This document shows, in pieces, positions 1 to 48,102 of a stretch of DNA of 64,000 nucleotides. Source of the DNA: Elusimicrobiota bacterium. Lineage in GTDB: Bacteria; Elusimicrobiota; Elusimicrobia; UBA1565; UBA9628. A program made the translations under genes and the position numbers. The stretch's first letter is position 1, and every line of letters begins with the position of its first letter. Where the stretch lies: contig PLZD01000009.1 of assembly GCA_003151975.1 (NCBI GenBank), forward strand, positions 65,508 to 129,507, in the 5' to 3' direction. The notes beneath the pieces are model-generated. The model worked only from the letters and a program-made list of their open reading frames with translations. It was not told the origin of the DNA and ran no database searches.

Positions 1-313
1 CATCGCGCAGGGCGCGCGGCCCTTGGTCAACGTCGTCACGACTGTCGTACCCACATCTTCCCGAATCACCGTGCTCTCGGCCTCCTCGGGAGACCAGATC
101 TCCGGCACGATCAACGCTCAGGCCCACGGCATGTTCACCTATTACCTGCTCAAGGGGCTCAAGGGCGCCGCCGATCCCGACGACAGCGGGCATGTCAGCC
201 TCGACGCGCTTTACACTTACGTCAAGAAGTCCGTCCAAAAAGCCGCGCATCGCGACAACAGAGAGCAAACGCCGGAGCTCCATGGCGCTAATCCGGAACT
301 TAGGTTATACTAG
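1..313 (+). CDS. Caspase-domain (peptidase C14) protein, C-terminal fragment; the gene begins upstream of the window
   Basis: The C-terminal ~96 aa are ~80% identical to the C-terminus of the next gene (SGDQISGTI..HGMFTY..LKGLKG..DP.D.GHVSLDALYTYVKKSV..AAHRDNR.QTPELH.ANP). Third codon positions are G/C-rich. Confidence 0.7.
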   Translation, partial: IAQGARPLVNVVTTVVPTSSRITVLSASSGDQISGTINAQAHGMFTYYLLKGLKGAADPDDSGHVSLDALYTYVKKSVQKAAHRDNREQTPELHGANPELRLY

Positions 314-357
314 GGTGTCGCCGCCGCACGCCGACAAATGTCGGGAGGATTAAGCCT

Positions 358-1458
358 ATGAAATTGATCTCCGCCGGACTTGCGGTCGTTTTCGCCGCAG
401 CCTACGCCGGACTCGTCGGGTGCGCGGCCGGCGGCGGCGGCGGCGGCTACTACGCCAACGATTCTTCCGTCCCAATTCAGCGCAGAGGCATGCTGATGGG
501 CGCCGTCGCTCAGAGAGCCGCGCCTCCCGCGCCTCCCGCGCCGGCTTACTCGAACCAGAGCTGGAGCAACAACGCCCGGCAGCAAACACGCGACGAGTCC
601 CAGGATCAGGACGAAACGCAAAACGCGCGCAAGCCCCGGCGGCAAGCCGATGAGGACGCGCCCGCGCCCCGCGTGGCGGCCTCCGACGTCGACAAGATCG
701 GCAAGTTCACCGAGAAGGAACACGTCGACGATTTCGCTTTGGTCGTCGGCATCGAGAAGTACCAGAACGTCCCGAAGGCCGACTACGCCGAGCACGACGC
801 CCAGACGATGAAGAAATACTTCGAGGCGATGGGCGTGCCCGAGGAGAACGTCATTCTTCTGACCGGCGACAAGGCCACGCGCACGGGCCTGGCGAAATAT
901 TTGGAAGAGTGGCTGCCCAAGAACGTGACCGCCGACTCGCGCGTCTATTTCTACTACTCCGGCCACGGCGCGCCCGATCCGGCCGACAGCACGGCCTATC
1001 TCGTGCCGTGGGACGGCGACGCGTCCTACTTGAAGACGAGCGCTTATCCTGTGTCTAGGCTTTATGAAAAATTGGCCGCGCTCAAGGCCAAGCAAGTCAT
1101 CGTCATGCTCGACTCGTGCTTCTCCGGCGCCGGCGGCCGCTCGGTCATCGCCAAGGGGGCGCGTCCGCTGGTCAACGTCGTCAACACGGCCGTGCCCGAG
1201 GATTCGCACCTGACCGTGCTTGCGGCCTCATCCGGCGATCAGATTTCCGGCACGATCGACGAGCAGGGGCACGGCATGTTTACCTATTTCGTGCTCAAGG
1301 GCTTGAAAGGCGAGGCCGATCCCGAGGACACGGGGCACGTCAGCCTCGACGCGCTCTACACCTACGTCAAGAAGTCGGTCTCGCGCGCCGCTCACCGCGA
1401 CAACCGCGACCAGACGCCGGAACTGCATTCGGCCAACCCGGCGCTCAAGCTCTACTAG
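358..1458 (+). CDS. Caspase-domain (peptidase C14, orthocaspase-like) lipoprotein
   Basis: N-terminal lipoprotein signal ending in lipobox LVGC. Catalytic dyad motifs YYSGHGAPD (His) and MLDSCFSGAG (Cys). A GGGAGGA RBS lies 7 nt upstream of the start. Confidence 0.8.
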   Translation: MKLISAGLAVVFAAAYAGLVGCAAGGGGGGYYANDSSVPIQRRGMLMGAVAQRAAPPAPPAPAYSNQSWSNNARQQTRDESQDQDETQNARKPRRQADEDAPAPRVAASDVDKIGKFTEKEHVDDFALVVGIEKYQNVPKADYAEHDAQTMKKYFEAMGVPEENVILLTGDKATRTGLAKYLEEWLPKNVTADSRVYFYYSGHGAPDPADSTAYLVPWDGDASYLKTSAYPVSRLYEKLAALKAKQVIVMLDSCFSGAGGRSVIAKGARPLVNVVNTAVPEDSHLTVLAASSGDQISGTIDEQGHGMFTYFVLKGLKGEADPEDTGHVSLDALYTYVKKSVSRAAHRDNRDQTPELHSANPALKLY

Positions 1459-2666
1459 CCCCAGAGCTCCTTGATCGCGTCCTGGAACAGCAGGCCGTTG
1501 AAGCAGAAGTAGGTGAAGGCCAGGCTCGCCAGCACGAAGTAGGCGATCAAAACGAAGGTCCGGCTGCGCGCGGCCGATTTCTCGCCGACGCCCGTTAGCG
1601 CGAACAGCGGCGTCAGGTACCAGCTGTGCCACATCTGCAGAAACGGGCTGCGCGCCAGCATGACGATCGTCCAGGCCAGGCACGCGATCAGCAGGCGCGC
1701 GCGATTTTGAGCCAGCGCGCCCGCGAGCAGGCCCATCGGCACGAGCAGGTAGCTGAGCCGCGCCCACGACGAAAAATCCGCCGTCGTGAAGAAGAAATTC
1801 GTGGGCTTCAAGGTCATCAGCCACGGATAAACGAGGACGAACGAGTAGGACGAGAGTCCGAGCATGAACAAGGATGAGAGCGTCATCGCGTTCTGACGGC
1901 GATTCTGCTTGCGGTATTCCTTCTGGCTAAAGAAAAGCCAAGCGCCCCAGGCGAGCATCGGCAGGTACCACAGCGCGCGGAAGTGCAGGAACAGCGAGAG
2001 GCAGTACCAGAACACGGTCTCGAGCCCCTTGCGTTTTTTCAGCGCCCGCGCCGCGAGCAGCAGCGGGATCATCGCCGTCGCGTCATAGAAGCCGTGCAAA
2101 GTCCAAAAAATCGTCTCGAGATAGACGAGAGGGATGATGATGAGCGCGGCGAGCTCGAGCGTGTCCTCGCCCTCGGCTTTGGCCGGCAGGACCTGAGACC
2201 AGAAGAACCACAGGAAGACATGGGCGAGCAGGAGCAGCTCGATGAGGCCTATCGTCGCGGCCGTCTTCGGATTCAGGTCGAGCGCTTCCTTTAATATCGC
2301 CTCGGGCAGAAACACCGCGAAGACGCCGGGCGGGTAGGGCCGCGGCAGGTAGCTCCAGTTGACGAGCAAGGGCGGCTTGCCTTGGCGTTCGGGTATGTCG
2401 AGCAGGTCGGTCACGCCCTGCGCGTCCGAGAGCCAGCCGTAGCGCGACGCGAACTCGTCGGCGACTTCTTTAGCGGGCCGAGTCCCCAGCCGCGCCACTG
2501 GTTCGCGGTATAGGCTAAAACCGCGGTACATCAGCAGGATCGTGCTGTCGATGTGGGCGGGCGCGTCGGCCTCGGAGCCCGCGAGGCACAGGTGGTTGGA
2601 TTTAAGGCCGAAGATCACGAAGGCGGTCCAGATCGCGAAGGAGGCCGCGAGAAGCTTAATCTTCAA
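1455..2666 (-). CDS. Polytopic integral membrane protein of unknown function
   Basis: 403-aa ORF with ~10 hydrophobic segments and G/C-rich third positions. Overlaps the purH stop by 4 bp, suggesting co-transcription. I recognise no catalytic motif. Confidence 0.55.
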   Translation of the reverse strand: MKIKLLAASFAIWTAFVIFGLKSNHLCLAGSEADAPAHIDSTILLMYRGFSLYREPVARLGTRPAKEVADEFASRYGWLSDAQGVTDLLDIPERQGKPPLLVNWSYLPRPYPPGVFAVFLPEAILKEALDLNPKTAATIGLIELLLLAHVFLWFFWSQVLPAKAEGEDTLELAALIIIPLVYLETIFWTLHGFYDATAMIPLLLAARALKKRKGLETVFWYCLSLFLHFRALWYLPMLAWGAWLFFSQKEYRKQNRRQNAMTLSSLFMLGLSSYSFVLVYPWLMTLKPTNFFFTTADFSSWARLSYLLVPMGLLAGALAQNRARLLIACLAWTIVMLARSPFLQMWHSWYLTPLFALTGVGEKSAARSRTFVLIAYFVLASLAFTYFCFNGLLFQDAIKELWG

Positions 2667-4222
2667 TGCCGGAAGTGGCGCACTCCCGCGAACAGCATGG
2701 CGACGTTGTGAGCGTCCGCGGCCTCGATGGCGTCGTGGTCGTCGCTTGAGCCGCCAGGCTGCATGATGGCGGAGATTCCGCCGGCCGCGGCCTCTTGAAC
2801 GTGCTCGGCCGACAGCGCGCCATCGCTTGCCAGCACCATCGGCTCGCCCGCGGGCAAAATCGGATGGCGCTCCTGACTTTTGACGAGAGCTAGGCGTAAT
2901 GAGTCCAGCCGCGAGGTCTGACCGCTGCCGATGCCCAAGGTGGCGGAGCCCTTGCAGATGATCGCGGCGTGCGTGCGCGCGTGCTTGGCGACGTGCCAGG
3001 CCAGGCGCAAAGACTTCATCTCCATCTCGTGCGGCGTGCGTTTGGTCACGACTCGTGGTCCGGACGCCGCCATCGGCTGGGTGTCCTTGTCCTGCACGAG
3101 CACGCCGCCGGCCACGGCTTTTAGGTCCAGCTCGTGGGCCGAGATCAAAGTCGAGGGAAGCGTGACCAGGCGAATGTCTTTCTTGGCCTTGAGCGCGAGC
3201 ATGGCCTTATGCGAGAAGGCGGGCGCCGCGACGCAGCCGACGTACTGCTCGGCGAATATGCCCGCGGTGTCCTCGTCGAGCTCGCGGTTGACCGCGGCAG
3301 TGCCTTGAAAGCCGCCGCGCGGGTCGCAGCGGAAGGCCAGGCGCGCCGCGTCGGACAACTTGTTGGACGAGGCCGCGCCGACGGGAACGGCGTGCTTGAC
3401 GACGACGCAGGCGGACTCGGTGATCTCGGTGGCCAGCTCCCAGGCGACCTCGAGGTCGAGATAGTGGTTGTAGGTCAGCGGCTTGCCGTGGATCAATTCC
3501 GCGGCGTTGATGCCCCAAGGCCTGGCGCCGCTCAACGTGTAGAGCGCGCCTTGCTGTTGGGGGTTTTCGCCGTAGCCGAGGTCCACCGTCTTCTTGAGGC
3601 CGATGACGAGCTCGTCGGGGAGTTTCTCCCAGCGCTCGCCGAGATACTGCGCGACCGTCGTGTCGTAGTAGGCCGTGTAATGGAAGGCCTTGGCCGAGAG
3701 ATTCTGGCGCTTCTCGACCGAGAGCTTGCCGAACTGGCGCAAGGACTCGATGGTCGGCTGGTAGTCGTCGGGATCGCAGAGGGGGATGACGTGCCGGAAA
3801 TTGCGCGCGGCCGCGCGCAAGAGCGTTGAGCCCGCGAGATCGATGAACTCGAGAATTTCGGACTGGGACAGCTTGGCGTCGCCGACGATCTCGGCGACCG
3901 GATAAAAAGTGACGGCGACCAGATCGATGGGCACCGCGTGCCGGCGCTCGAGCTCGTGCATCTGGCCGGGCTTGTCGCGGTCGGCCGTGAGCCCGATGAG
4001 TATTCGCGGGTGCATGAAGCCCAGGCGGCCTTCGAGCACGTCGGGGGATTTGACGAGCTCGCGCAGGTCGAGGACTTTGAGCTCGGCTTGCTTGAGCGCG
4101 TCGGCGGTGCTGCCGTAGGAGATCAGCGTGTAGCCGAGGTCCTTGAGCGCGTAGCCGAGTTCGATGATGCCGGTCTTGTCGGTGACGGAAAGCAGGGCGT
4201 AGCGCGGCGTCGTTTCCGCCAT
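2663..4222 (-). CDS. purH: Bifunctional AICAR transformylase / IMP cyclohydrolase
   Basis: Full-length match to the PurH architecture: an MGS-like N-terminal domain followed by the AICARFT domain, with the typical C-terminal ...GVRHFRH. Confidence 0.95.
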   Translation of the reverse strand: MAETTPRYALLSVTDKTGIIELGYALKDLGYTLISYGSTADALKQAELKVLDLRELVKSPDVLEGRLGFMHPRILIGLTADRDKPGQMHELERRHAVPIDLVAVTFYPVAEIVGDAKLSQSEILEFIDLAGSTLLRAAARNFRHVIPLCDPDDYQPTIESLRQFGKLSVEKRQNLSAKAFHYTAYYDTTVAQYLGERWEKLPDELVIGLKKTVDLGYGENPQQQGALYTLSGARPWGINAAELIHGKPLTYNHYLDLEVAWELATEITESACVVVKHAVPVGAASSNKLSDAARLAFRCDPRGGFQGTAAVNRELDEDTAGIFAEQYVGCVAAPAFSHKAMLALKAKKDIRLVTLPSTLISAHELDLKAVAGGVLVQDKDTQPMAASGPRVVTKRTPHEMEMKSLRLAWHVAKHARTHAAIICKGSATLGIGSGQTSRLDSLRLALVKSQERHPILPAGEPMVLASDGALSAEHVQEAAAGGISAIMQPGGSSDDHDAIEAADAHNVAMLFAGVRHFRH

Positions 4223-40555: not shown

Positions 40556-41356
40556 TCACTGTCCGGCGGTGATCAGAAACGACGCCGGGCAGCTCCCGCC
40601 GACGTCTCCCGGAACCAGCGAGCCTGACAGGCTCTGGGCCGAAGGCGAGACGGTGATGCGGATCTCGGAGAGCGCGCCCTTTACGCAGACGAAATGCACG
40701 GCGGAATCCGCGGCGGAACCCCAATCCGCCCGGGCCTGATTCATCGCGTCGGCGGCGCTCACCGTCTGGCCGGAGTTGGCGGCGATGAAGCGGCCGAGCG
40801 CGCCGTCGTTGGCTTGGGTCACGAGGGAATCCGCGAGCGCGAAATAGGTCTCGGCGTCAAGGCCTGAGCACGTGCCGTGGCGGTACCACTCGTGGCGCTC
40901 GAGGCAGTTATCCGTTCCCGGCATCTTCGAGGCCAGCGCGTCGCGCGTCTGCTGCGAGAGCGGCACCGGCGGCATCTGGCAGCGCGTTCGCGCCGTGTCC
41001 TGGTTCTTGATCGAGGAGTCGACGCCGCAGTAGCCCAAGGAATTCGACGGATCGTTGCGCAGGCTCGGCCAAAGGCCGTGCATCACGAGCGCCTGGTCGT
41101 ATTGCCCGGTCTGGGGCGGGCGGCACTCCGGCAGGGAGCGTCCCACTCCCCCGGCGCAGAAGGTCGGATGCCACTCCAGCGACAGAGTGTAATAGTCGAA
41201 ATTCTCGAGCGCGCGCACGGGCTTCGCGGACGGAGCGGCGCCGTCGCGAGAAGCGACGAGCTGGGACGTGATCGATGCCAGCGGGTCGGCGTTCCAGTCG
41301 ACGGCGGGGGCGGCGTGCGCGGAGGCGAGGATCAACGCAAGCAAGAAATTGGTCAT
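40556..41356 (-). CDS. Ribonuclease T2 family (RNase I-like), exported
   Basis: Signal peptide. CAS I motif FDYYTLSLEWHPTFC..HGLWP and CAS II motif HEWYRHGTC. Confidence 0.8.
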   Translation of the reverse strand: MTNFLLALILASAHAAPAVDWNADPLASITSQLVASRDGAAPSAKPVRALENFDYYTLSLEWHPTFCAGGVGRSLPECRPPQTGQYDQALVMHGLWPSLRNDPSNSLGYCGVDSSIKNQDTARTRCQMPPVPLSQQTRDALASKMPGTDNCLERHEWYRHGTCSGLDAETYFALADSLVTQANDGALGRFIAANSGQTVSAADAMNQARADWGSAADSAVHFVCVKGALSEIRITVSPSAQSLSGSLVPGDVGGSCPASFLITAGQ

Positions 41357-42774: not shown

Positions 42775-43956
42775 GTGCAGCGGCTTTGCGCCGTCGTACT
42801 CGTCGCATCTCTCTCACTTCCCGCCGCGGGCGGAACCTTCGCTATTCGCCCGGCTCCCGTCGAGCTGGCCCCGCTCGCGGCGCCCTTGGCCTCTCCTCCG
42901 TCCCTCGCGTTGGAGGGTGTGAAGCCCTTGCAGGAGATTCCGAAGCTGGACGCGCTTCCACTGTCTCAGATCGAGGCGGTCCAGGAACCGCTCGCGGTTG
43001 AGGTCCGTCCGGAGGAGGCGCGCGCGTGGGTCCCTCTGGCTTCCGCGCAGGCGGCCGACGCGGCGCGCACGCCCGAGCTCGCGGCGGCCGGCTTCGACGG
43101 AGATAATCTTCCCGGCGAGCCCGCGGCCTCGGAACCCGCGCTGCCTTCGTATCTCGCCTCGCCCGACGCGGCGCACTCGGCGTGGATCGCGGGCGTCGTC
43201 GAGGCCGCCTCGCGGTCGAAGACGGGGCGCGCCGTGCTGGGCCGCGTGGCGCGTCTTGCCGAAGACCAGGGCCGGCCGCTCATGGTGGTCGTCGCCCCGA
43301 TCGGGAACTCGGGCGAGTACGCCTTCGACCACGAGATCGTCACTTTGGACTCGAAGCACGCCAAAAGCGCGCCCGAGGACGCGGCCCCCGTCTTCATTCA
43401 CGAGCTCACGCACGTCCTGCAGTTGGCCCAGGAACTGCCGGCCGACGCCTTCGAGATGGAGCTCGAGGCGTGGCTCACGCAATTTCGCGTCTCCGAGGAG
43501 CTCGGCTTTAAACCCCCGCGCGGCAGCTTCCACGCCAGCGCCTTTCGGCGCTTCAAGAACGACCTCGACCGCTTCATCGTCTGGCTGAAGAAGGAGTACT
43601 CGACCAACATCGCGGTCGTCGGCTCGGACGTTTCTGAATACGAGACGGAGCTCGAGGAGCGTCAGCTCAAGCATCATGGCGAGCTCGAGCGGCTCGAGAA
43701 GCGCCTCGAGAAGAAGCGGAAGATCGAGGAGCGCATGCGCCAGACCCGCCAGCCCGAGGGGCTGATCGCGGAATTCCACCTCGACGAGGTCGCGCCGCTC
43801 GAGGAGAAAGTCCGCCAGAAGATCCGCGACATCGGCTGGGTCGAGCGAGACCTGGCGCTCCTGCGCGATCCCGAGAGCCGCAGGCGCTATCAGGTCTACG
43901 CCGCGCGCGTGCTCAAGCGCGCCCGCCTCTACCGCGAGCGCCTGACGGCGTCTTAG
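42775..43956 (+). CDS. Exported DUF4157-like HExxH putative zinc metallopeptidase with C-terminal coiled coil
   Basis: Signal peptide. The motif EYAFDHEIVTLD...APVFIHELTHVLQ fits the DUF4157 signature HExxHxxQ. The Glu/Arg/Leu-rich C-terminus predicts a coiled coil. Confidence 0.5.
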   Translation: MQRLCAVVLVASLSLPAAGGTFAIRPAPVELAPLAAPLASPPSLALEGVKPLQEIPKLDALPLSQIEAVQEPLAVEVRPEEARAWVPLASAQAADAARTPELAAAGFDGDNLPGEPAASEPALPSYLASPDAAHSAWIAGVVEAASRSKTGRAVLGRVARLAEDQGRPLMVVVAPIGNSGEYAFDHEIVTLDSKHAKSAPEDAAPVFIHELTHVLQLAQELPADAFEMELEAWLTQFRVSEELGFKPPRGSFHASAFRRFKNDLDRFIVWLKKEYSTNIAVVGSDVSEYETELEERQLKHHGELERLEKRLEKKRKIEERMRQTRQPEGLIAEFHLDEVAPLEEKVRQKIRDIGWVERDLALLRDPESRRRYQVYAARVLKRARLYRERLTAS

Positions 43957-43966
43957 CGCTCGGCGA

Positions 43967-45337
43967 TCATTCGCCCTGGCGCCACTGCGGCATCTGGTCC
44001 GTGTTGTAGTCGCGCCGCGCCGTGCGCGAGACCTCGGGCCGCAGATAATCGAATACGGCCTTCATGTCGGGTCCTTTCTCGCGCAGGCCCTTGAGGAAAT
44101 AGTAGGTGAAGAGGCCGTGGCCCTTCGTCTCGAAGCTGTTTGAGATTTGATCTCCGGCGGAGGCTGAGAGGACGGTCATGTGAGCGGGAAGCTCCTCGGT
44201 CTTGATCGTCACGAGCGGCCGGGCTCCCTTGGCGATCACGGAGCGCCCGCCGGCGCCCGAGAAGCACGAGTCCATCGCGACCGTGACGCTCTTGGCCGGA
44301 AGCTTGGCGAGCTGGGCGTAGAGCTTCTTGAGCGAATAGCCCATCTGATCGATGTAGGTCGGGTCGGCGTCGAAGGGCACCATGTACGCGTCTCCGGTCC
44401 TAGGGTTGGGCGCGCCGTGGCCCGAGAAGAACACGAAGACCTCGTCGCCTTTCTCGACGCGGTTGGGCAGCCAGCTCTCGAAATATTTCTCGAAGTCTCC
44501 GCGCGTGGCGCGATCGTCGACCAGCAGGGCGACGTTCTCCTCGGGGTAGCCCAAGACGTTCTTGACGTACTCGGCCACGATGCGCGCGTCGCCGGCGGCG
44601 AAATCCGCGTTAGGCAGATGCTCTCGGTAGTGCTCAATGCCGATGATCACGGCATGGCCGGCGCGGCGCGCGCGCGGCGCCGGAGCGTCGTCGACGTCTG
44701 AATGGGCGACGGGCCGGGGCGCCGGAGCGGCGGCGACGTTCCGGCGCACGGGAGCTTCCCCGGCGGGCTCGGGACGCTTGAGGACTTCCGCGCTCACCGC
44801 GGCGGCGGCCTGGCCCAGCGCATCGGCCAGCATCCCGCCGACCTTGGCCAAAGACTCGTTGTTGCTGCTGGTCTCTACGTGCGCTTCGAAGGAACGCTCC
44901 CAAAGCAGCTCCCGCCCGGCGGCGAGGCGGACGATCACCGCCAGCGACGCGTCGGTTTGACTGAAGCCCATCTTGTAGTGCGTCCGCGTCGGATCGAACC
45001 TGAGCTGGATTTCGTAATCGGCCGAGTCGTCGGGCCGGTCGAGGAGCAGCGCCGTCTGGAAGACCTGCCGAAACGCGCTCTCGGCGGCGGCGGGCAGGTT
45101 CTTGCCCCACTGTGCGTCCCACGCGCCCATCGGGATCGGCGCGTAATCCTTGTAGGCCCGGACTTCCTGCGGCACGACGACGACCGCGCGCGCGTCGATC
45201 GGCCGGCCGCCGAGGAAGGGGGAAGCGGTCTGGATCGGGACATTGAACCTCGTCCCGCCCGTCGGTCCAGTGGTCGCGCAACCCGTGAGTCCGAGGATAA
45301 CGGCGGCGGCGGCGAGGACCGAGATTCTGGAGTTCAT
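43967..45337 (-). CDS. Caspase-domain (peptidase C14) lipoprotein with ~200-aa N-terminal extension
   Basis: Lipobox LGLTGC. Motifs HAVIIGIEHY, FFSGHGAPN and AMDSCFSGAG. Paralog of the 358..1458 gene (~45% identity in the caspase domain). Confidence 0.8.
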   Translation of the reverse strand: MNSRISVLAAAAVILGLTGCATTGPTGGTRFNVPIQTASPFLGGRPIDARAVVVVPQEVRAYKDYAPIPMGAWDAQWGKNLPAAAESAFRQVFQTALLLDRPDDSADYEIQLRFDPTRTHYKMGFSQTDASLAVIVRLAAGRELLWERSFEAHVETSSNNESLAKVGGMLADALGQAAAAVSAEVLKRPEPAGEAPVRRNVAAAPAPRPVAHSDVDDAPAPRARRAGHAVIIGIEHYREHLPNADFAAGDARIVAEYVKNVLGYPEENVALLVDDRATRGDFEKYFESWLPNRVEKGDEVFVFFSGHGAPNPRTGDAYMVPFDADPTYIDQMGYSLKKLYAQLAKLPAKSVTVAMDSCFSGAGGRSVIAKGARPLVTIKTEELPAHMTVLSASAGDQISNSFETKGHGLFTYYFLKGLREKGPDMKAVFDYLRPEVSRTARRDYNTDQMPQWRQGE

Positions 45338-45366: not shown

Positions 45367-46419
45367 TCAGATCTTGATCGCGATCCGGCGGCGCTTGAGC
45401 AGCGTGAAGGCGCCGGTCCACAGCGCCGCGTAGGCGAACGCGAAGGCCGCCGAGGCGTTGGCGGGCGAGAGCCAAGTCTCGAATAATTTCGCGCAGAGCC
45501 AAAGTCGCGGCTGCGTGCCGTCGATCCGCGTGTAGACCATGAGCTTCAAGAGGAGTATCGGCAGGACATAGGCCGCGATGGCGTTGACGCCGAGCGCCTC
45601 GAACGGCCGGCCCCAGGCCGTCGTGCCGTCGATATCGCAAAGCCAATAAATGTCGGCCAGCGCGAAGGCCGCCAGGCCTCCCGTATAAAGAACAAACGAG
45701 CTCGTCCACAGCGCCTTGTTGATCGGAAACGCCAGCCCCCAAAGCCGGCCGAGACCCGCGCAAGCCAACCCGATGACGGCGAGCACGGCGGCTTTTTGCT
45801 CGGGACGACCGGGAGTCCTCAGGCCGCGCCCGCAAATCAGCCCGATGAGCGTCGTCGCGACTGCCGGGCCGGTGCTCAAGAAACCTTCTGGATCGTAGGA
45901 TCCTGAACGATACGTGTGCGCGCCCAAGATGAGACGGTCGAGCTTGGCCGGCAGGTTTCCTTCGACGGTCATGTCGCCGCCCTGCGCCAGCAGCAGCCAA
46001 TAGCCCAGCAGGATCGCCGCGGTCAAGCTGATCTGCGCGCGCGGGTTGAGCGCCGACTCGATAGCCGCGCACGCGAGATAGCAGAGCGCGATGCGCTGCA
46101 GGACGCCCATCAAGCGCAAAGTGCCGAGCTGGTAATGCGGGATCGCGTTGAGCATGAGGCCGAGCGCGAACAAGATCGCCGCGCGTTTGAGTATTTGCGT
46201 CGGAGTCTTGGGCGAGGCGAACGCGAGTGCCGCGCCCATGATGAACAGGAAAAATGGAAACACGAGATCGGCCGGCGTGCAGCCGTGCCACGGCGCGTGA
46301 TCGAGCCAGTCATAACCGGAGTTATTTCCCGGCGTGTTGACGACGATCATGCCCGCCACCGTCAGCCCGCGAAAAACGTCGAGCGAAAGCAGGCGCTTAC
46401 CGCGCGTCGGAGAGGTCAT
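45367..46419 (-). CDS. DUF1624/DUF5009 (heparan-alpha-glucosaminide N-acetyltransferase-like) membrane acyltransferase
   Basis: N-terminal RLLSLDVFRGLTVAGMIVVN motif. About 10 TM helices. It sits 29 bp upstream of the caspase lipoprotein on the same strand. Confidence 0.6.
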   Translation of the reverse strand: MTSPTRGKRLLSLDVFRGLTVAGMIVVNTPGNNSGYDWLDHAPWHGCTPADLVFPFFLFIMGAALAFASPKTPTQILKRAAILFALGLMLNAIPHYQLGTLRLMGVLQRIALCYLACAAIESALNPRAQISLTAAILLGYWLLLAQGGDMTVEGNLPAKLDRLILGAHTYRSGSYDPEGFLSTGPAVATTLIGLICGRGLRTPGRPEQKAAVLAVIGLACAGLGRLWGLAFPINKALWTSSFVLYTGGLAAFALADIYWLCDIDGTTAWGRPFEALGVNAIAAYVLPILLLKLMVYTRIDGTQPRLWLCAKLFETWLSPANASAAFAFAYAALWTGAFTLLKRRRIAIKI

Positions 46420-46478: not shown

Positions 46479-46916
46479 TTGGTTATGCGAAAAATAGCTC
46501 TGCTTCTGGCGGCAATCGCGGCGTTCTCGACGCCGGCGCGCGCGGAAACGAATCTCAAGCTCTACGGCGCCCAGCTCGACTACGATCCCAACGGCAACGT
46601 CTGGCACGTGGCCTCCAAAGTCTGCAACAAAGACCAAGTCCCCTCGGGCTCAATGCTCTACGAGCTGCGCCTTTATCAAGGCGACGTGACGCCTGGAGCT
46701 CAGCACCTCACGATCGGCGGCTTCAAGTACTCCAATCCGCTCCAGGCGGGGAAGTGCCGCGACTCGAAGGATGTCTCCGTGAAGGTGCGCACGAAAACAG
46801 TTGCCCCGGGCGAGTACAAAGTCGTGCTCTGGGTCGGCGATTACGACGGCAGCCGGTTCATCGGCCACATCTACTACACCTTCGACCACACCTTCATCCG
46901 CTCGAACGGGCCTTAA
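46479..46916 (+). CDS. Small exported protein of unknown function
   Basis: Signal peptide MVMRKIALLLAAIAAFSTPARA. 145 aa. Confidence 0.5.
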   Translation: MVMRKIALLLAAIAAFSTPARAETNLKLYGAQLDYDPNGNVWHVASKVCNKDQVPSGSMLYELRLYQGDVTPGAQHLTIGGFKYSNPLQAGKCRDSKDVSVKVRTKTVAPGEYKVVLWVGDYDGSRFIGHIYYTFDHTFIRSNGP

Positions 46917-47992
46917 GGCGCGAGGCCGGCGCGCACGCCGTATTTGCGCGTCTTCCAGTAAGGGAGCCCCTCGTCGATCGTGGTCACCTTTGAAAATCCC
47001 GCCTCCAGGAGTTTCTTCGCCAGCGTTCCCGACTCCGCGTGGGGGCAGGCGCAATAAGCGACGAGCCAGGAATCCCGAGGGAGTCCCGATAAATACGGCG
47101 CGGGATCGTAAAAGGGCACGCTTACGGCGCCGGCGATGTGCTCGTTGACGTAATCGGCGGGCGGGCGCGCGTCGATCAAAGTCATTTTCGCGCCGCGGTC
47201 GAGTTGAGTCTTCACGGCGTCCGCCGGAGTCGAGGCCGGATACGCGAAGAAGCCCTCCGCCGCGGGCCCGTTTGGATTGAGCGGGACGTGGCCGAGAGGG
47301 ATCGGCGCGGGGGAGGCCGGCGCAAGCCTCACGGCCGAGCCGGAACTCCAGCCGCGCATCAGCGCCAGCAAGTCGTCGATTCCTTTCGCGCCCAGCGAAT
47401 CCTCGAAGCCGCGCATCGCCGTGCCCTCAAGGCCTTTGCCGATCACGCGCCGTAGAAACCCGTCGCCGGCTCCCAGCAGGAATTGCGCGCTGCCGATCTG
47501 CAGATTCTGGCCGCCGACGCCGTTCTGGCCGTGGCACGAGAGGCAGCGCGCCGAGAATATTTTGGCGCCGCGTTTTGCGGACCCGGCCGCGGGACGCTCG
47601 TCGAGCTGGGCCGGCGGCGACTTTTGCCAGCCTCGGATGAAATTGACGAGCGCGTCGACGTCGCCGGGCGTCAGCGGTCCGCGGCGCGCCCCCGACCACG
47701 CCGACATCGTCGTGCCGGGGCGCCCTTCTTCGACTGCCAGCCGTAAAAAATAATCGCTGGCCGAGGCCAATAGGTCGGAGTTGGCCAGCATGGGCGCGCG
47801 GTCGGCCTTGTAGCCCTCGCCGGCCGCGCCGTGGCAAACGGCGCACATGGTCCCGTAAATTTGCGCGCCGCGCGCGGCAGACGGCGACGTGCTCGTCGCG
47901 ACAGCCGAGGGCGTGCTGGCGGCGACCATCTCGGCCGGCACGGCGGCGCGCGCCGGCGCGGCGGACAGCGCGAGCAGCAAAAGAAAAATCAT
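46913..47992 (-). CDS. Dihaem c-type cytochrome with C-terminal rhodanese-like domain
   Basis: Signal peptide MIFLLLLALSAAPARA. Two haem-binding motifs CAVCH and CLSCH. The C-terminal rhodanese-like fold (..AYCACPH.) lacks the canonical Cys-X5-Arg loop. Confidence 0.6.
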   Translation of the reverse strand: MIFLLLLALSAAPARAAVPAEMVAASTPSAVATSTSPSAARGAQIYGTMCAVCHGAAGEGYKADRAPMLANSDLLASASDYFLRLAVEEGRPGTTMSAWSGARRGPLTPGDVDALVNFIRGWQKSPPAQLDERPAAGSAKRGAKIFSARCLSCHGQNGVGGQNLQIGSAQFLLGAGDGFLRRVIGKGLEGTAMRGFEDSLGAKGIDDLLALMRGWSSGSAVRLAPASPAPIPLGHVPLNPNGPAAEGFFAYPASTPADAVKTQLDRGAKMTLIDARPPADYVNEHIAGAVSVPFYDPAPYLSGLPRDSWLVAYCACPHAESGTLAKKLLEAGFSKVTTIDEGLPYWKTRKYGVRAGLAP

Positions 47993-48102
47993 GATTTGCG
48001 ATTTTCTCAAATGACGGGGTCCGGACACAATGCGAAATCTGCGGTCGCGGCCGGTGACAGAGATCACATTGCATTTTTTGGCTTCCGGCCCCATAATACA
48101 CG

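Follow-up and report, generated by a model that had tools for sequence, protein, structure and literature searches.

Three caspase-like (C14) genes of an Elusimicrobiota bacterium probably encode exported, envelope-anchored peptidases of a large family

Bacterial homologues of caspases are mostly discussed as cytoplasmic proteases of cell death or signalling. The present work deals with three genes of the Peptidase_C14 family, hereafter copies A, B and C, which are located on a 64-kb stretch of Elusimicrobiota DNA (contig PLZD01000009.1; the whole stretch is referred to as the window, and positions are counted from its first letter) and whose products appear to be exported. The closest described proteins are the metacaspases and orthocaspases (MEROPS C14B), namely Yca1, TbMCA2, AtMC4, AtMC9 and MaOC1 from Microcystis, which are cytoplasmic or cytosolic and have no lipobox. 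Their sequence identity to the family of A, B and C is only about 15–24%, and this family, unlike them, possesses its own invariant CFSGAGGRS...ARPLV loop and carries export modules, swapped between members, ahead of a C-terminal catalytic domain. Two further relatives were returned by a structure comparison with copy B: GSU0716 from Geobacter sulfurreducens (PDB 3BIJ), a C14 protein from structural genomics without known function, and the top match, the paracaspase MALT1, which differs from this family in being a cytosolic signalling protease of eukaryotes that carries death and Ig domains. The S1 pocket of MALT1 has the equivalent Asp of the D-x-C motif, and the enzyme is Arg-specific.

The gingipains of Bacteroidota (C25), as well as PmC11 and iotapain (C11), are likewise exported cysteine proteases of clan CD, being Arg/Lys-specific and extracytoplasmic. 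A census of prokaryotic C14 homologues published in 2012 assigned transmembrane (TM) or N-terminal helices, likely signal peptides, to 15% of them and listed 46 single-domain C14 sequences with an N-terminal hydrophobic segment; no C14 genes were present in the Elusimicrobia genomes finished by then, and neither lipoproteins nor the clade described here were recognised (PMC3501461). The TM- or signal-bearing metacaspases of that census belong to the same general class as the proteins considered here, with the C14 domain following an N-terminal hydrophobic segment (PMC3501461). Since likely signal peptides were reported there, exported bacterial C14 proteins are not new in principle, and A, B and C add to the C14 homologues that bear export signals; the large clade they come from has its centre in Elusimicrobiota and has for the most part not been studied.

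It is likely that A, B and C are paralogues within a large Elusimicrobiota-centred family of exported clan-CD C14 cysteine endopeptidases that are anchored in the cell envelope and cut after Arg or Lys at P1. The proteins have a three-part layout: they begin with an export signal, continue with an N-terminal module that varies between the copies, and end in a highly conserved catalytic domain of about 250 aa (Table 1). In B and C the export signal is of the classical lipobox type, and in A it is a signal peptide or an anchor. The Pfam model Peptidase_C14 (PF00656) gives 71.7, 67 and 67.4 bits for A, B and C, respectively, with a gathering cut-off of 21.4 bits, and in the full-length copy A it covers residues 221–454 (E 9.7e-20). 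The AlphaFold2 (AF2) models of B and C have a mean predicted local distance difference test score (pLDDT) of 80.6 and 86.2, respectively, with ten-residue blocks of B reaching about 84–98 over residues 111–250 and 281–366. In the Foldseek search copy B matched MALT1 best (E 1.8e-13, TM-score 0.72 on the target), followed among others by GSU0716, Yca1 and CED-3, and no match was obtained with phmmer when copy B was compared with the PDB sequences. The metacaspases were reached only with a profile built from 77 sequences of the family, which found Yca1 at E 5e-7 and placed His203 of copy B under SGHG and Asp147 under the Asp of C-I-N-D.

The catalytic motifs were located in the translations as the earlier note on this DNA had claimed, namely YYSGHGAPD (His203, nt 964-966) and LDSCFSGAGGRS (Cys254, nt 1117-1119) in copy B, and FFSGHGAPN (His307) and MDSCFSGAGGRS (Cys358) in copy C. 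Residues D147, G-H203-G, D252-S-C254-F-S-G, R269-P-L and H305-G are invariant in the 77 relatives, and a second set, of 64 sequences, shows no variation in the equivalent columns. Taken together, the profile scores above the gathering cut-off, the modelled structures with their caspase-like matches and the alignments show A, B and C to be Peptidase_C14 proteins with a predicted caspase-like fold and an aligned, invariant His/Cys dyad, in line with what the earlier note had proposed. The possibility that the proteins are pseudo-enzymes was rejected because the dyad is invariant in both sets.

Two of the invariant acidic residues, D147 and D252, stand at what we take to be the S1-pocket positions of metacaspases and paracaspases (Asp95 and Asp211 in TbMCA2, Asp365 and Asp462 in MALT1), and it is due to this placement that cleavage after Arg or Lys at P1 is predicted. 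The loop following the catalytic Cys (GGRSVIAKGARP; GGRSVIAKGARPLV) is nearly invariant across the family, contains both Arg and Lys, and is the sole low-confidence segment of the catalytic domain in both AF2 models (pLDDT below 50; blocks of 42–72 in copy B), so this basic, flexible segment may be an activation or autoprocessing loop. Within the caspase domain of copy B there is also an EF-hand-like helix-loop-helix (1309-1353, aa 318–332, with the loop at about aa 320–332), situated between helices 307–319 and 330–347. Its loop follows the canonical pattern (DxDxDGHVxLxEL) in 17 of the 77 relatives, is degenerate in both A and B (DPEDTGHVSLDAL) and has been lost from the clade of copy C, copy C included, which hints at calcium control in a part of the family.

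Export signals were assigned with a re-implementation of the PROSITE rule PS51257, which demands Lys or Arg in the first seven residues, a stretch of six uncharged residues and [LIVMFWSTAG]2-[LIVMFYSTAGCQ]-[AGS]-C with the Cys at position 15–35. As had been suggested in the earlier note, both complete copies carry putative lipoprotein signals under this rule: copy B with MKLISAGLAVVFAAAYAGLVG-C22, K2 and an uncharged h-region, its AF2 model having an N-terminal helix at residues 3–19, and copy C with MNSRISVLAAAAVILGLTG-C20. The N-terminus of copy C, LTGCATTGPTGGTRF, is the same in its relative P0122 and has close variants in P0123 and P0124. Among 240 sampled relatives the rule is passed by 139, and a further 68 begin with a strongly hydrophobic segment, as Kelch fusions typically do, while the remainder mostly look truncated. 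The residue at position +2 is almost never Asp in the lipoboxes of the family.

The segments between the export signal and the catalytic domain are of different kinds. No homology was found between A and B ahead of the SDVDKIG motif, and the low-complexity tether of B, about 90 residues long (pLDDT below 50 at residues 26–55 and 61–82), stands where A has a folded N-domain; B has lost that domain and carries a canonical lipobox of its own. The N-domain of A (residues 82–185) is a small alpha/beta domain homologous to that of the lipobox-bearing relative P0008 (E 3e-6). The N-domain of copy C found structural matches among envelope lipoproteins only, namely LptE, PelC, PqiC and CsgG, and in other relatives the module consists of PDZ and Sel1, Kelch, ankyrin, EF-hand or rhomboid/rhombosortase domains. 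A separate case is P0066, a 512-aa protein from an Elusimicrobia metagenome-assembled genome (MAG) annotated as rhombosortase, in which a rhomboid/rhombosortase domain and an extra hydrophobic segment are fused to the C14 domain; the fusion suggests a link to the sorting or processing of exported proteins.

Under the proposed model, the proteins would be acylated at the lipobox Cys and reside in the envelope, the most likely site being the outer membrane with the protease facing the periplasm. At this site their substrates would be other proteins that have been exported, cleaved behind Arg or Lys. The position or the choice of substrate would depend on the N-terminal module, and the flexible basic loop after the catalytic Cys might serve in activation or autoprocessing. 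The periplasm-facing outer-membrane site is favoured because the N-domain of copy C matches LptE, PelC, PqiC and CsgG, because PDZ fusions are typical of periplasmic proteases, and because of the near absence of Asp at position +2. As for the role, the regulated processing of envelope proteins is the first choice and nutritional proteolysis at the cell surface the second.

This second role is the main functional alternative, according to which the proteins would be surface-exposed or released digestive proteases feeding a peptide-fermenting organism, in the manner of gingipains or the C11 lipoprotein proteases of Bacteroides. We regard it as unlikely, though as the best-surviving of the alternatives, since LptE, PelC, PqiC and CsgG are periplasm-facing outer-membrane lipoproteins, PDZ fusions point in the same direction, and a very conserved catalytic domain combined with swapped recognition modules is more in keeping with specific substrates than with digestion in bulk; no one of the three points is decisive.

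Several observations weigh against an envelope-anchored, Arg/Lys-specific protease family as proposed here. Copy A fails the lipobox rule, having a hydrophobic segment at residues 6–22 followed by D23 and GGGGG-C32, and is probably exported or anchored without a canonical lipobox. The lipobox calls come from a PROSITE-style rule, the sorting rule for position +2 is that of E. coli and may not hold in Elusimicrobia, and the predicted P1 specificity derives from a residue equivalence with TbMCA2, Yca1 and MALT1 that is taken from the literature. Finally, the envelope model does not account for those relatives of copy C that lie inside microcompartment operons.

The neighbourhoods of 79 related loci were probed by tblastn with proteins of bacterial microcompartments (BMCs), of a radical S-adenosylmethionine (SAM) cluster lying upstream of copy A, and with HGSNAT, DUF6782 and ExbBD proteins. 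No recurrent neighbour was found across the 79 loci, which indicates that the C14 genes are probably self-contained units. The HGSNAT-like and HExxH neighbours of copy C (see below) recur in 0 of the 79, its relatives lying in other contexts. Four relatives of copy C from four samples (P0123, P0124, P0131 and P0140), all with lipoboxes, occupy the same position in BMC operons of the sugar-phosphate-utilising (SPU) type, with the gene order TIM-PTAC-BMC-EutN-AldDH-BMC-rpiB-C14-EutN-EutN-DeoC-BMC and with start and stop codons overlapping those of the neighbours. The operons are found on contigs L004 (1717-11593) and L087 (2518-10688) and on two Joint Genome Institute (JGI) contigs; in three of them the C14 gene is located between rpiB and two EutN/CcmL genes, and on the contig of P0123 rpiB is replaced by a bPH_4 gene. 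The operon of L004 also holds a gene coding for a PDZ-Sel1-C14 protein. No paper on C14 genes in BMC loci was found in the open-access literature.

The fixed position of four relatives and their overlapping codons could mean that copy C itself works with an SPU microcompartment. This seems very improbable, as neither the 44 kb on one side of copy C nor the 19 kb on the other contains a shell or core gene of a BMC, and tblastn of the operon proteins against the window matched C14 domains only. Besides, the relatives embedded in BMC operons bear lipoboxes, which would place them outside the cytoplasm, where BMCs assemble; a more distant relative, P0221, belongs to a tandem C14 pair at a locus with no BMC genes, and the paper on the SPU BMC does not mention a peptidase.

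Another alternative concerns the genes just outside the window, where the earlier note had supposed that the upstream context of copy A may hold further components. A striking cluster was indeed found there, on the source contig around the protein P0001 (L001, 3220-8566), consisting of closely packed co-directional genes coding for a polyprenyl synthase, a PqqD-like protein (146 aa), three radical-SAM paralogues and a MenA-like UbiA prenyltransferase, together with a 38-aa open reading frame (ORF), MNDQKTVADAKAAKLDWETPCLEEVSERVMAQPYIRFT, ending in ...VSERVMAQPYIRFT. The best matches of the radical-SAM proteins are the mycofactocin, AhbD, NirJ and PqqE models, all below their cut-offs, and no NCBIfam model reaches its cut-off with any protein of the cluster. 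The gene order and the peptide recur in L002, L084 and L085 from Elusimicrobia and in the betaproteobacterial-like (Casimicrobiaceae-like) L086, the peptide end VSE[RQ]VMAQPYIRFT being invariant across these recurrences. The cluster looks as if it made a product derived from the peptide, so far undescribed, in a pathway that includes prenylation; no paper describing PqqD, UbiA and radical-SAM genes with a precursor peptide was found in the open-access literature.

It might be supposed that A and B are maturation peptidases removing the leader from this peptide after export, as NisP does for nisin, given that they are on the same strand as the cluster with only 4 nt between the third radical-SAM gene and copy A in L001, that the related MAG L002 has these genes in the same order, and that peptide-derived products usually require a peptidase. 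We consider such a role very improbable and have rejected it, as the cluster and its peptide are conserved in three more distant genomes (L084, L085 and L086) with no C14 gene after the third radical-SAM gene. Among the 79 other C14 loci the cluster is absent from 78, the sole exception coming from the genome of L002, and the single C14 gene there has an in-frame TAG. A C14 gene thus follows the cluster in L001 and L002 only, and because the cluster occurs without one elsewhere, A and B appear to be its neighbours, not its parts.

The last alternative, that A, B and C are cytoplasmic death or defence caspases of a conflict system (gasdermin-activating, CHAT/Craspase-like or EACC1-associated), may be dismissed as the least probable of all, since the PADLOC 'caspase' match (E 8e-22 for copy B, positions 4–181 of a 453-position profile) and the only NCBIfam match (NF047832, 'caspase, EACC1-associated type', at 86.6, 85.4 and 67.3 bits, below its cut-off of 140) are confined to the shared catalytic domain and both fall short of the cut-off, while export signals are present, the N-domain of copy C has an envelope-lipoprotein fold, and the adjoining genes are housekeeping or unrelated, with no gasdermin, NTPase, CRISPR or EACC1-type partner among them.

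The family to which the three proteins would belong as exported proteases is very large. An exhaustive phmmer search with the catalytic domain of copy B over 1.84 billion cluster representatives yielded 2,624 clusters at 50% identity with E <= 1e-30 and 44,771 with E <= 1e-3, the C14 domain being C-terminal in essentially all top matches, and at least 536 relatives turned up in a motif scan of species-representative genomes. Among the matches listed, most taxa are Elusimicrobiota, and some are MAGs of Nitrospirota, Deltaproteobacteria and Thermodesulfobacteriota. The named homologues come nearly all from Elusimicrobia/Elusimicrobiota MAGs and are called 'caspase family protein' where they have a name, many of them by NCBI. 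The earlier note had described the predicted export as unusual, which is an overstatement in view of the C14 proteins with likely signal peptides known since 2012 (PMC3501461), the size of the clade and the number of members already named. No paper on Elusimicrobia caspase lipoproteins or on this clade was found in the open-access literature.

Tandem arrays appear to be a habit of the family: in the species-representative genomes, 17 of the 79 loci have two to five C14 domains within about 20 kb, and several genomes give three to five separate loci among the best 80 of the at least 536 relatives. Arrays of four to five C14 genes on the same strand are present in L073 (6442-20497, a Nitrospirae MAG), L039 and L040. 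The three copies belong to a lineage-expanded family, as the earlier note had envisaged. It is possible, although we put this forward tentatively and with some doubt, that the clade as a whole (at least 2,600 clusters, undescribed so far) represents a modular system of envelope proteolysis, in which lipid-anchored, exported caspase-fold proteases would combine a near-invariant catalytic cassette with interchangeable modules (LptE/PqiC-like, PDZ-Sel1, Kelch, ankyrin or rhomboid). Such a system would be spread over Elusimicrobiota and some MAGs of the Nitrospirota and Desulfobacterota type, with many members having a canonical EF-hand-type calcium loop and the subclade of copy C being fixed in SPU operons.

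Within the window, tblastn with B and C found exactly three C14 copies. B and C share 46% identity over 260 aa (E 3e-74), and proteins identical to them are present in public assemblies (P0001 and P0121, respectively). Copy A is cut by the window edge, so that its reading frame (2..310, with the stop codon at 311-313) gives the C-terminal 103 aa; the full gene was taken from the source contig, where it occupies L001 8571-9956 (P0003, 461 aa), window position 1 corresponding to L001 9644 and the sequences being identical from there on. No promoter-like site was detected in 1..2800 and no terminator-like site on the + strand between A and B in the promoter and terminator scan, and because the spacer has neither, A and B are presumed to be co-transcribed.

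In the part of copy A that lies in the window, 81 of 103 aa are identical to copy B (79%, E 5e-60) and the DNA identity is 76% over 309 nt; over the whole catalytic region of 258 residues the values are 84.5% for protein and 81% for DNA, the earlier note having given about 80% for both levels. The same note had called the tandem duplication recent. Its tandem and lineage-specific character stood, and its recent date did not: over the catalytic region there are about 0.74 synonymous substitutions per site (dS) and 0.11 nonsynonymous ones (dN), the third codon positions are 56% identical in the in-window part, and two metagenomic proteins, P0002 (87.6% identical to A) and P0004 (91% to B), are each nearer to one of the copies than these are to each other. 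The dN/dS ratio of about 0.14 shows both copies to be under purifying selection.

The related MAG GCA_016194705.1 (L002/L005) has the same flanking genes and a single C14 gene at the locus, whose catalytic domain is 74% identical to that of A and 79% to that of B, both values being lower than that between A and B. The radical-SAM genes beside the locus share about 85% identity between the two genomes. As the single copy is less similar to either A or B than these two are to one another, the duplication, or a later gene conversion, postdates the split from GCA_016194705.1; the neighbour-joining tree, a distance tree that includes partial sequences, is indicative only. The single C14 gene of this MAG has an in-frame TAG (L002 11069-11071) where relatives have Thr, and is called as two pieces of 356 and 80 aa; it is either a pseudogene or the result of an assembly error. 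Recent horizontal transfer has no support, as the genes do not differ from the window in G+C content.

Table 1 Coordinates of the C14 genes in the window and of their predicted parts
Feature	Position	Strand	Description	Basis
Copy A, 3' end	1..313	+	Last 103 codons and stop of a 461-aa C14 protein	Translation
A-B spacer	314..357	+	44 nt; ribosome-binding site GGGAGGA 343-349, eight nt before ATG	
Copy B	358..1458	+	366-aa lipoprotein-type C14 peptidase	ORF; Pfam PF00656 E 2.5e-18
Copy B signal peptide	358..423	+	Lipobox L-V-G-C, Cys22 at 421-423	PS51257 rule
Copy B tether	424..690	+	Low-complexity: Gly run, PPAPPAP, Q/D/E-rich; predicted disordered	
Copy B catalytic domain	691..1455	+	aa 112-366; Asp147, His203, Asp252, Cys254	AF2, Foldseek, family profile
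Post-Cys flexible loop	1141-1170 (B aa 262-271); 44219-44260 (C aa 360-373)	+; -		
Copy C	43967..45337	-	456-aa lipoprotein-type C14 peptidase	ORF; Pfam PF00656 E 1.9e-18
Copy C signal peptide	45278..45337	-	Lipobox L-T-G-C, Cys20 codon 45280..45278	PS51257 rule
Copy C N-domain	44777..45256	-	aa 28-187; outer-membrane-lipoprotein fold	
Copy C catalytic domain	43970..44659	-	aa 227-456; His307 44419..44417, Cys358 44266..44264	

The ORF positions, the 44-nt gap and the place of the third copy are those reported in the earlier note, having been confirmed with the ORF list and tblastn, and its placement of the neighbours of copy C was likewise correct: an HGSNAT-like ORF (45367..46419, - strand) lies 29 nt upstream of copy C, and an ORF with an HExxH motif (42775..43956, + strand) is convergent with it. 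The latter had been thought to be DUF4157-like; its top Pfam match is DUF6782 instead, below the cut-off. Next to copy B there is an ORF coding for a 403-aa multi-pass membrane protein (1455-2666, - strand) with no Pfam family above the cut-off; the two genes are convergent and their stops overlap by 4 nt. In L002 an unannotated 400-aa ORF beside purH is found in its place, the two being likened by size and position alone. Further along the window, the ORF at 40556-41356 (- strand) begins with what resembles a signal peptide and contains the motifs HGLWP and HEWYRHGTC, and judging by these motifs only we take it to be of the RNase T2 type. A 393-aa ORF at 46913-48094 (- strand) has two CxxCH haem-binding motifs (CAVCH and CLSCH), and its C-terminal part is presumably rhodanese-like, a guess made from the sequence.

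Taken by itself, the window is of modest interest, as it adds three more members to a family that databases label 'caspase family protein', and the more unusual leads are the cluster of PqqD, radical-SAM, prenyltransferase and peptide genes and the microcompartment operons that include relatives of copy C. If the proposed reading is true, the family would provide tractable small enzymes for work on substrate specificity and calcium control, and a phylum-wide expansion of exported, lipid-anchored proteins with intact catalytic residues would point to an envelope-directed role for the caspase fold.

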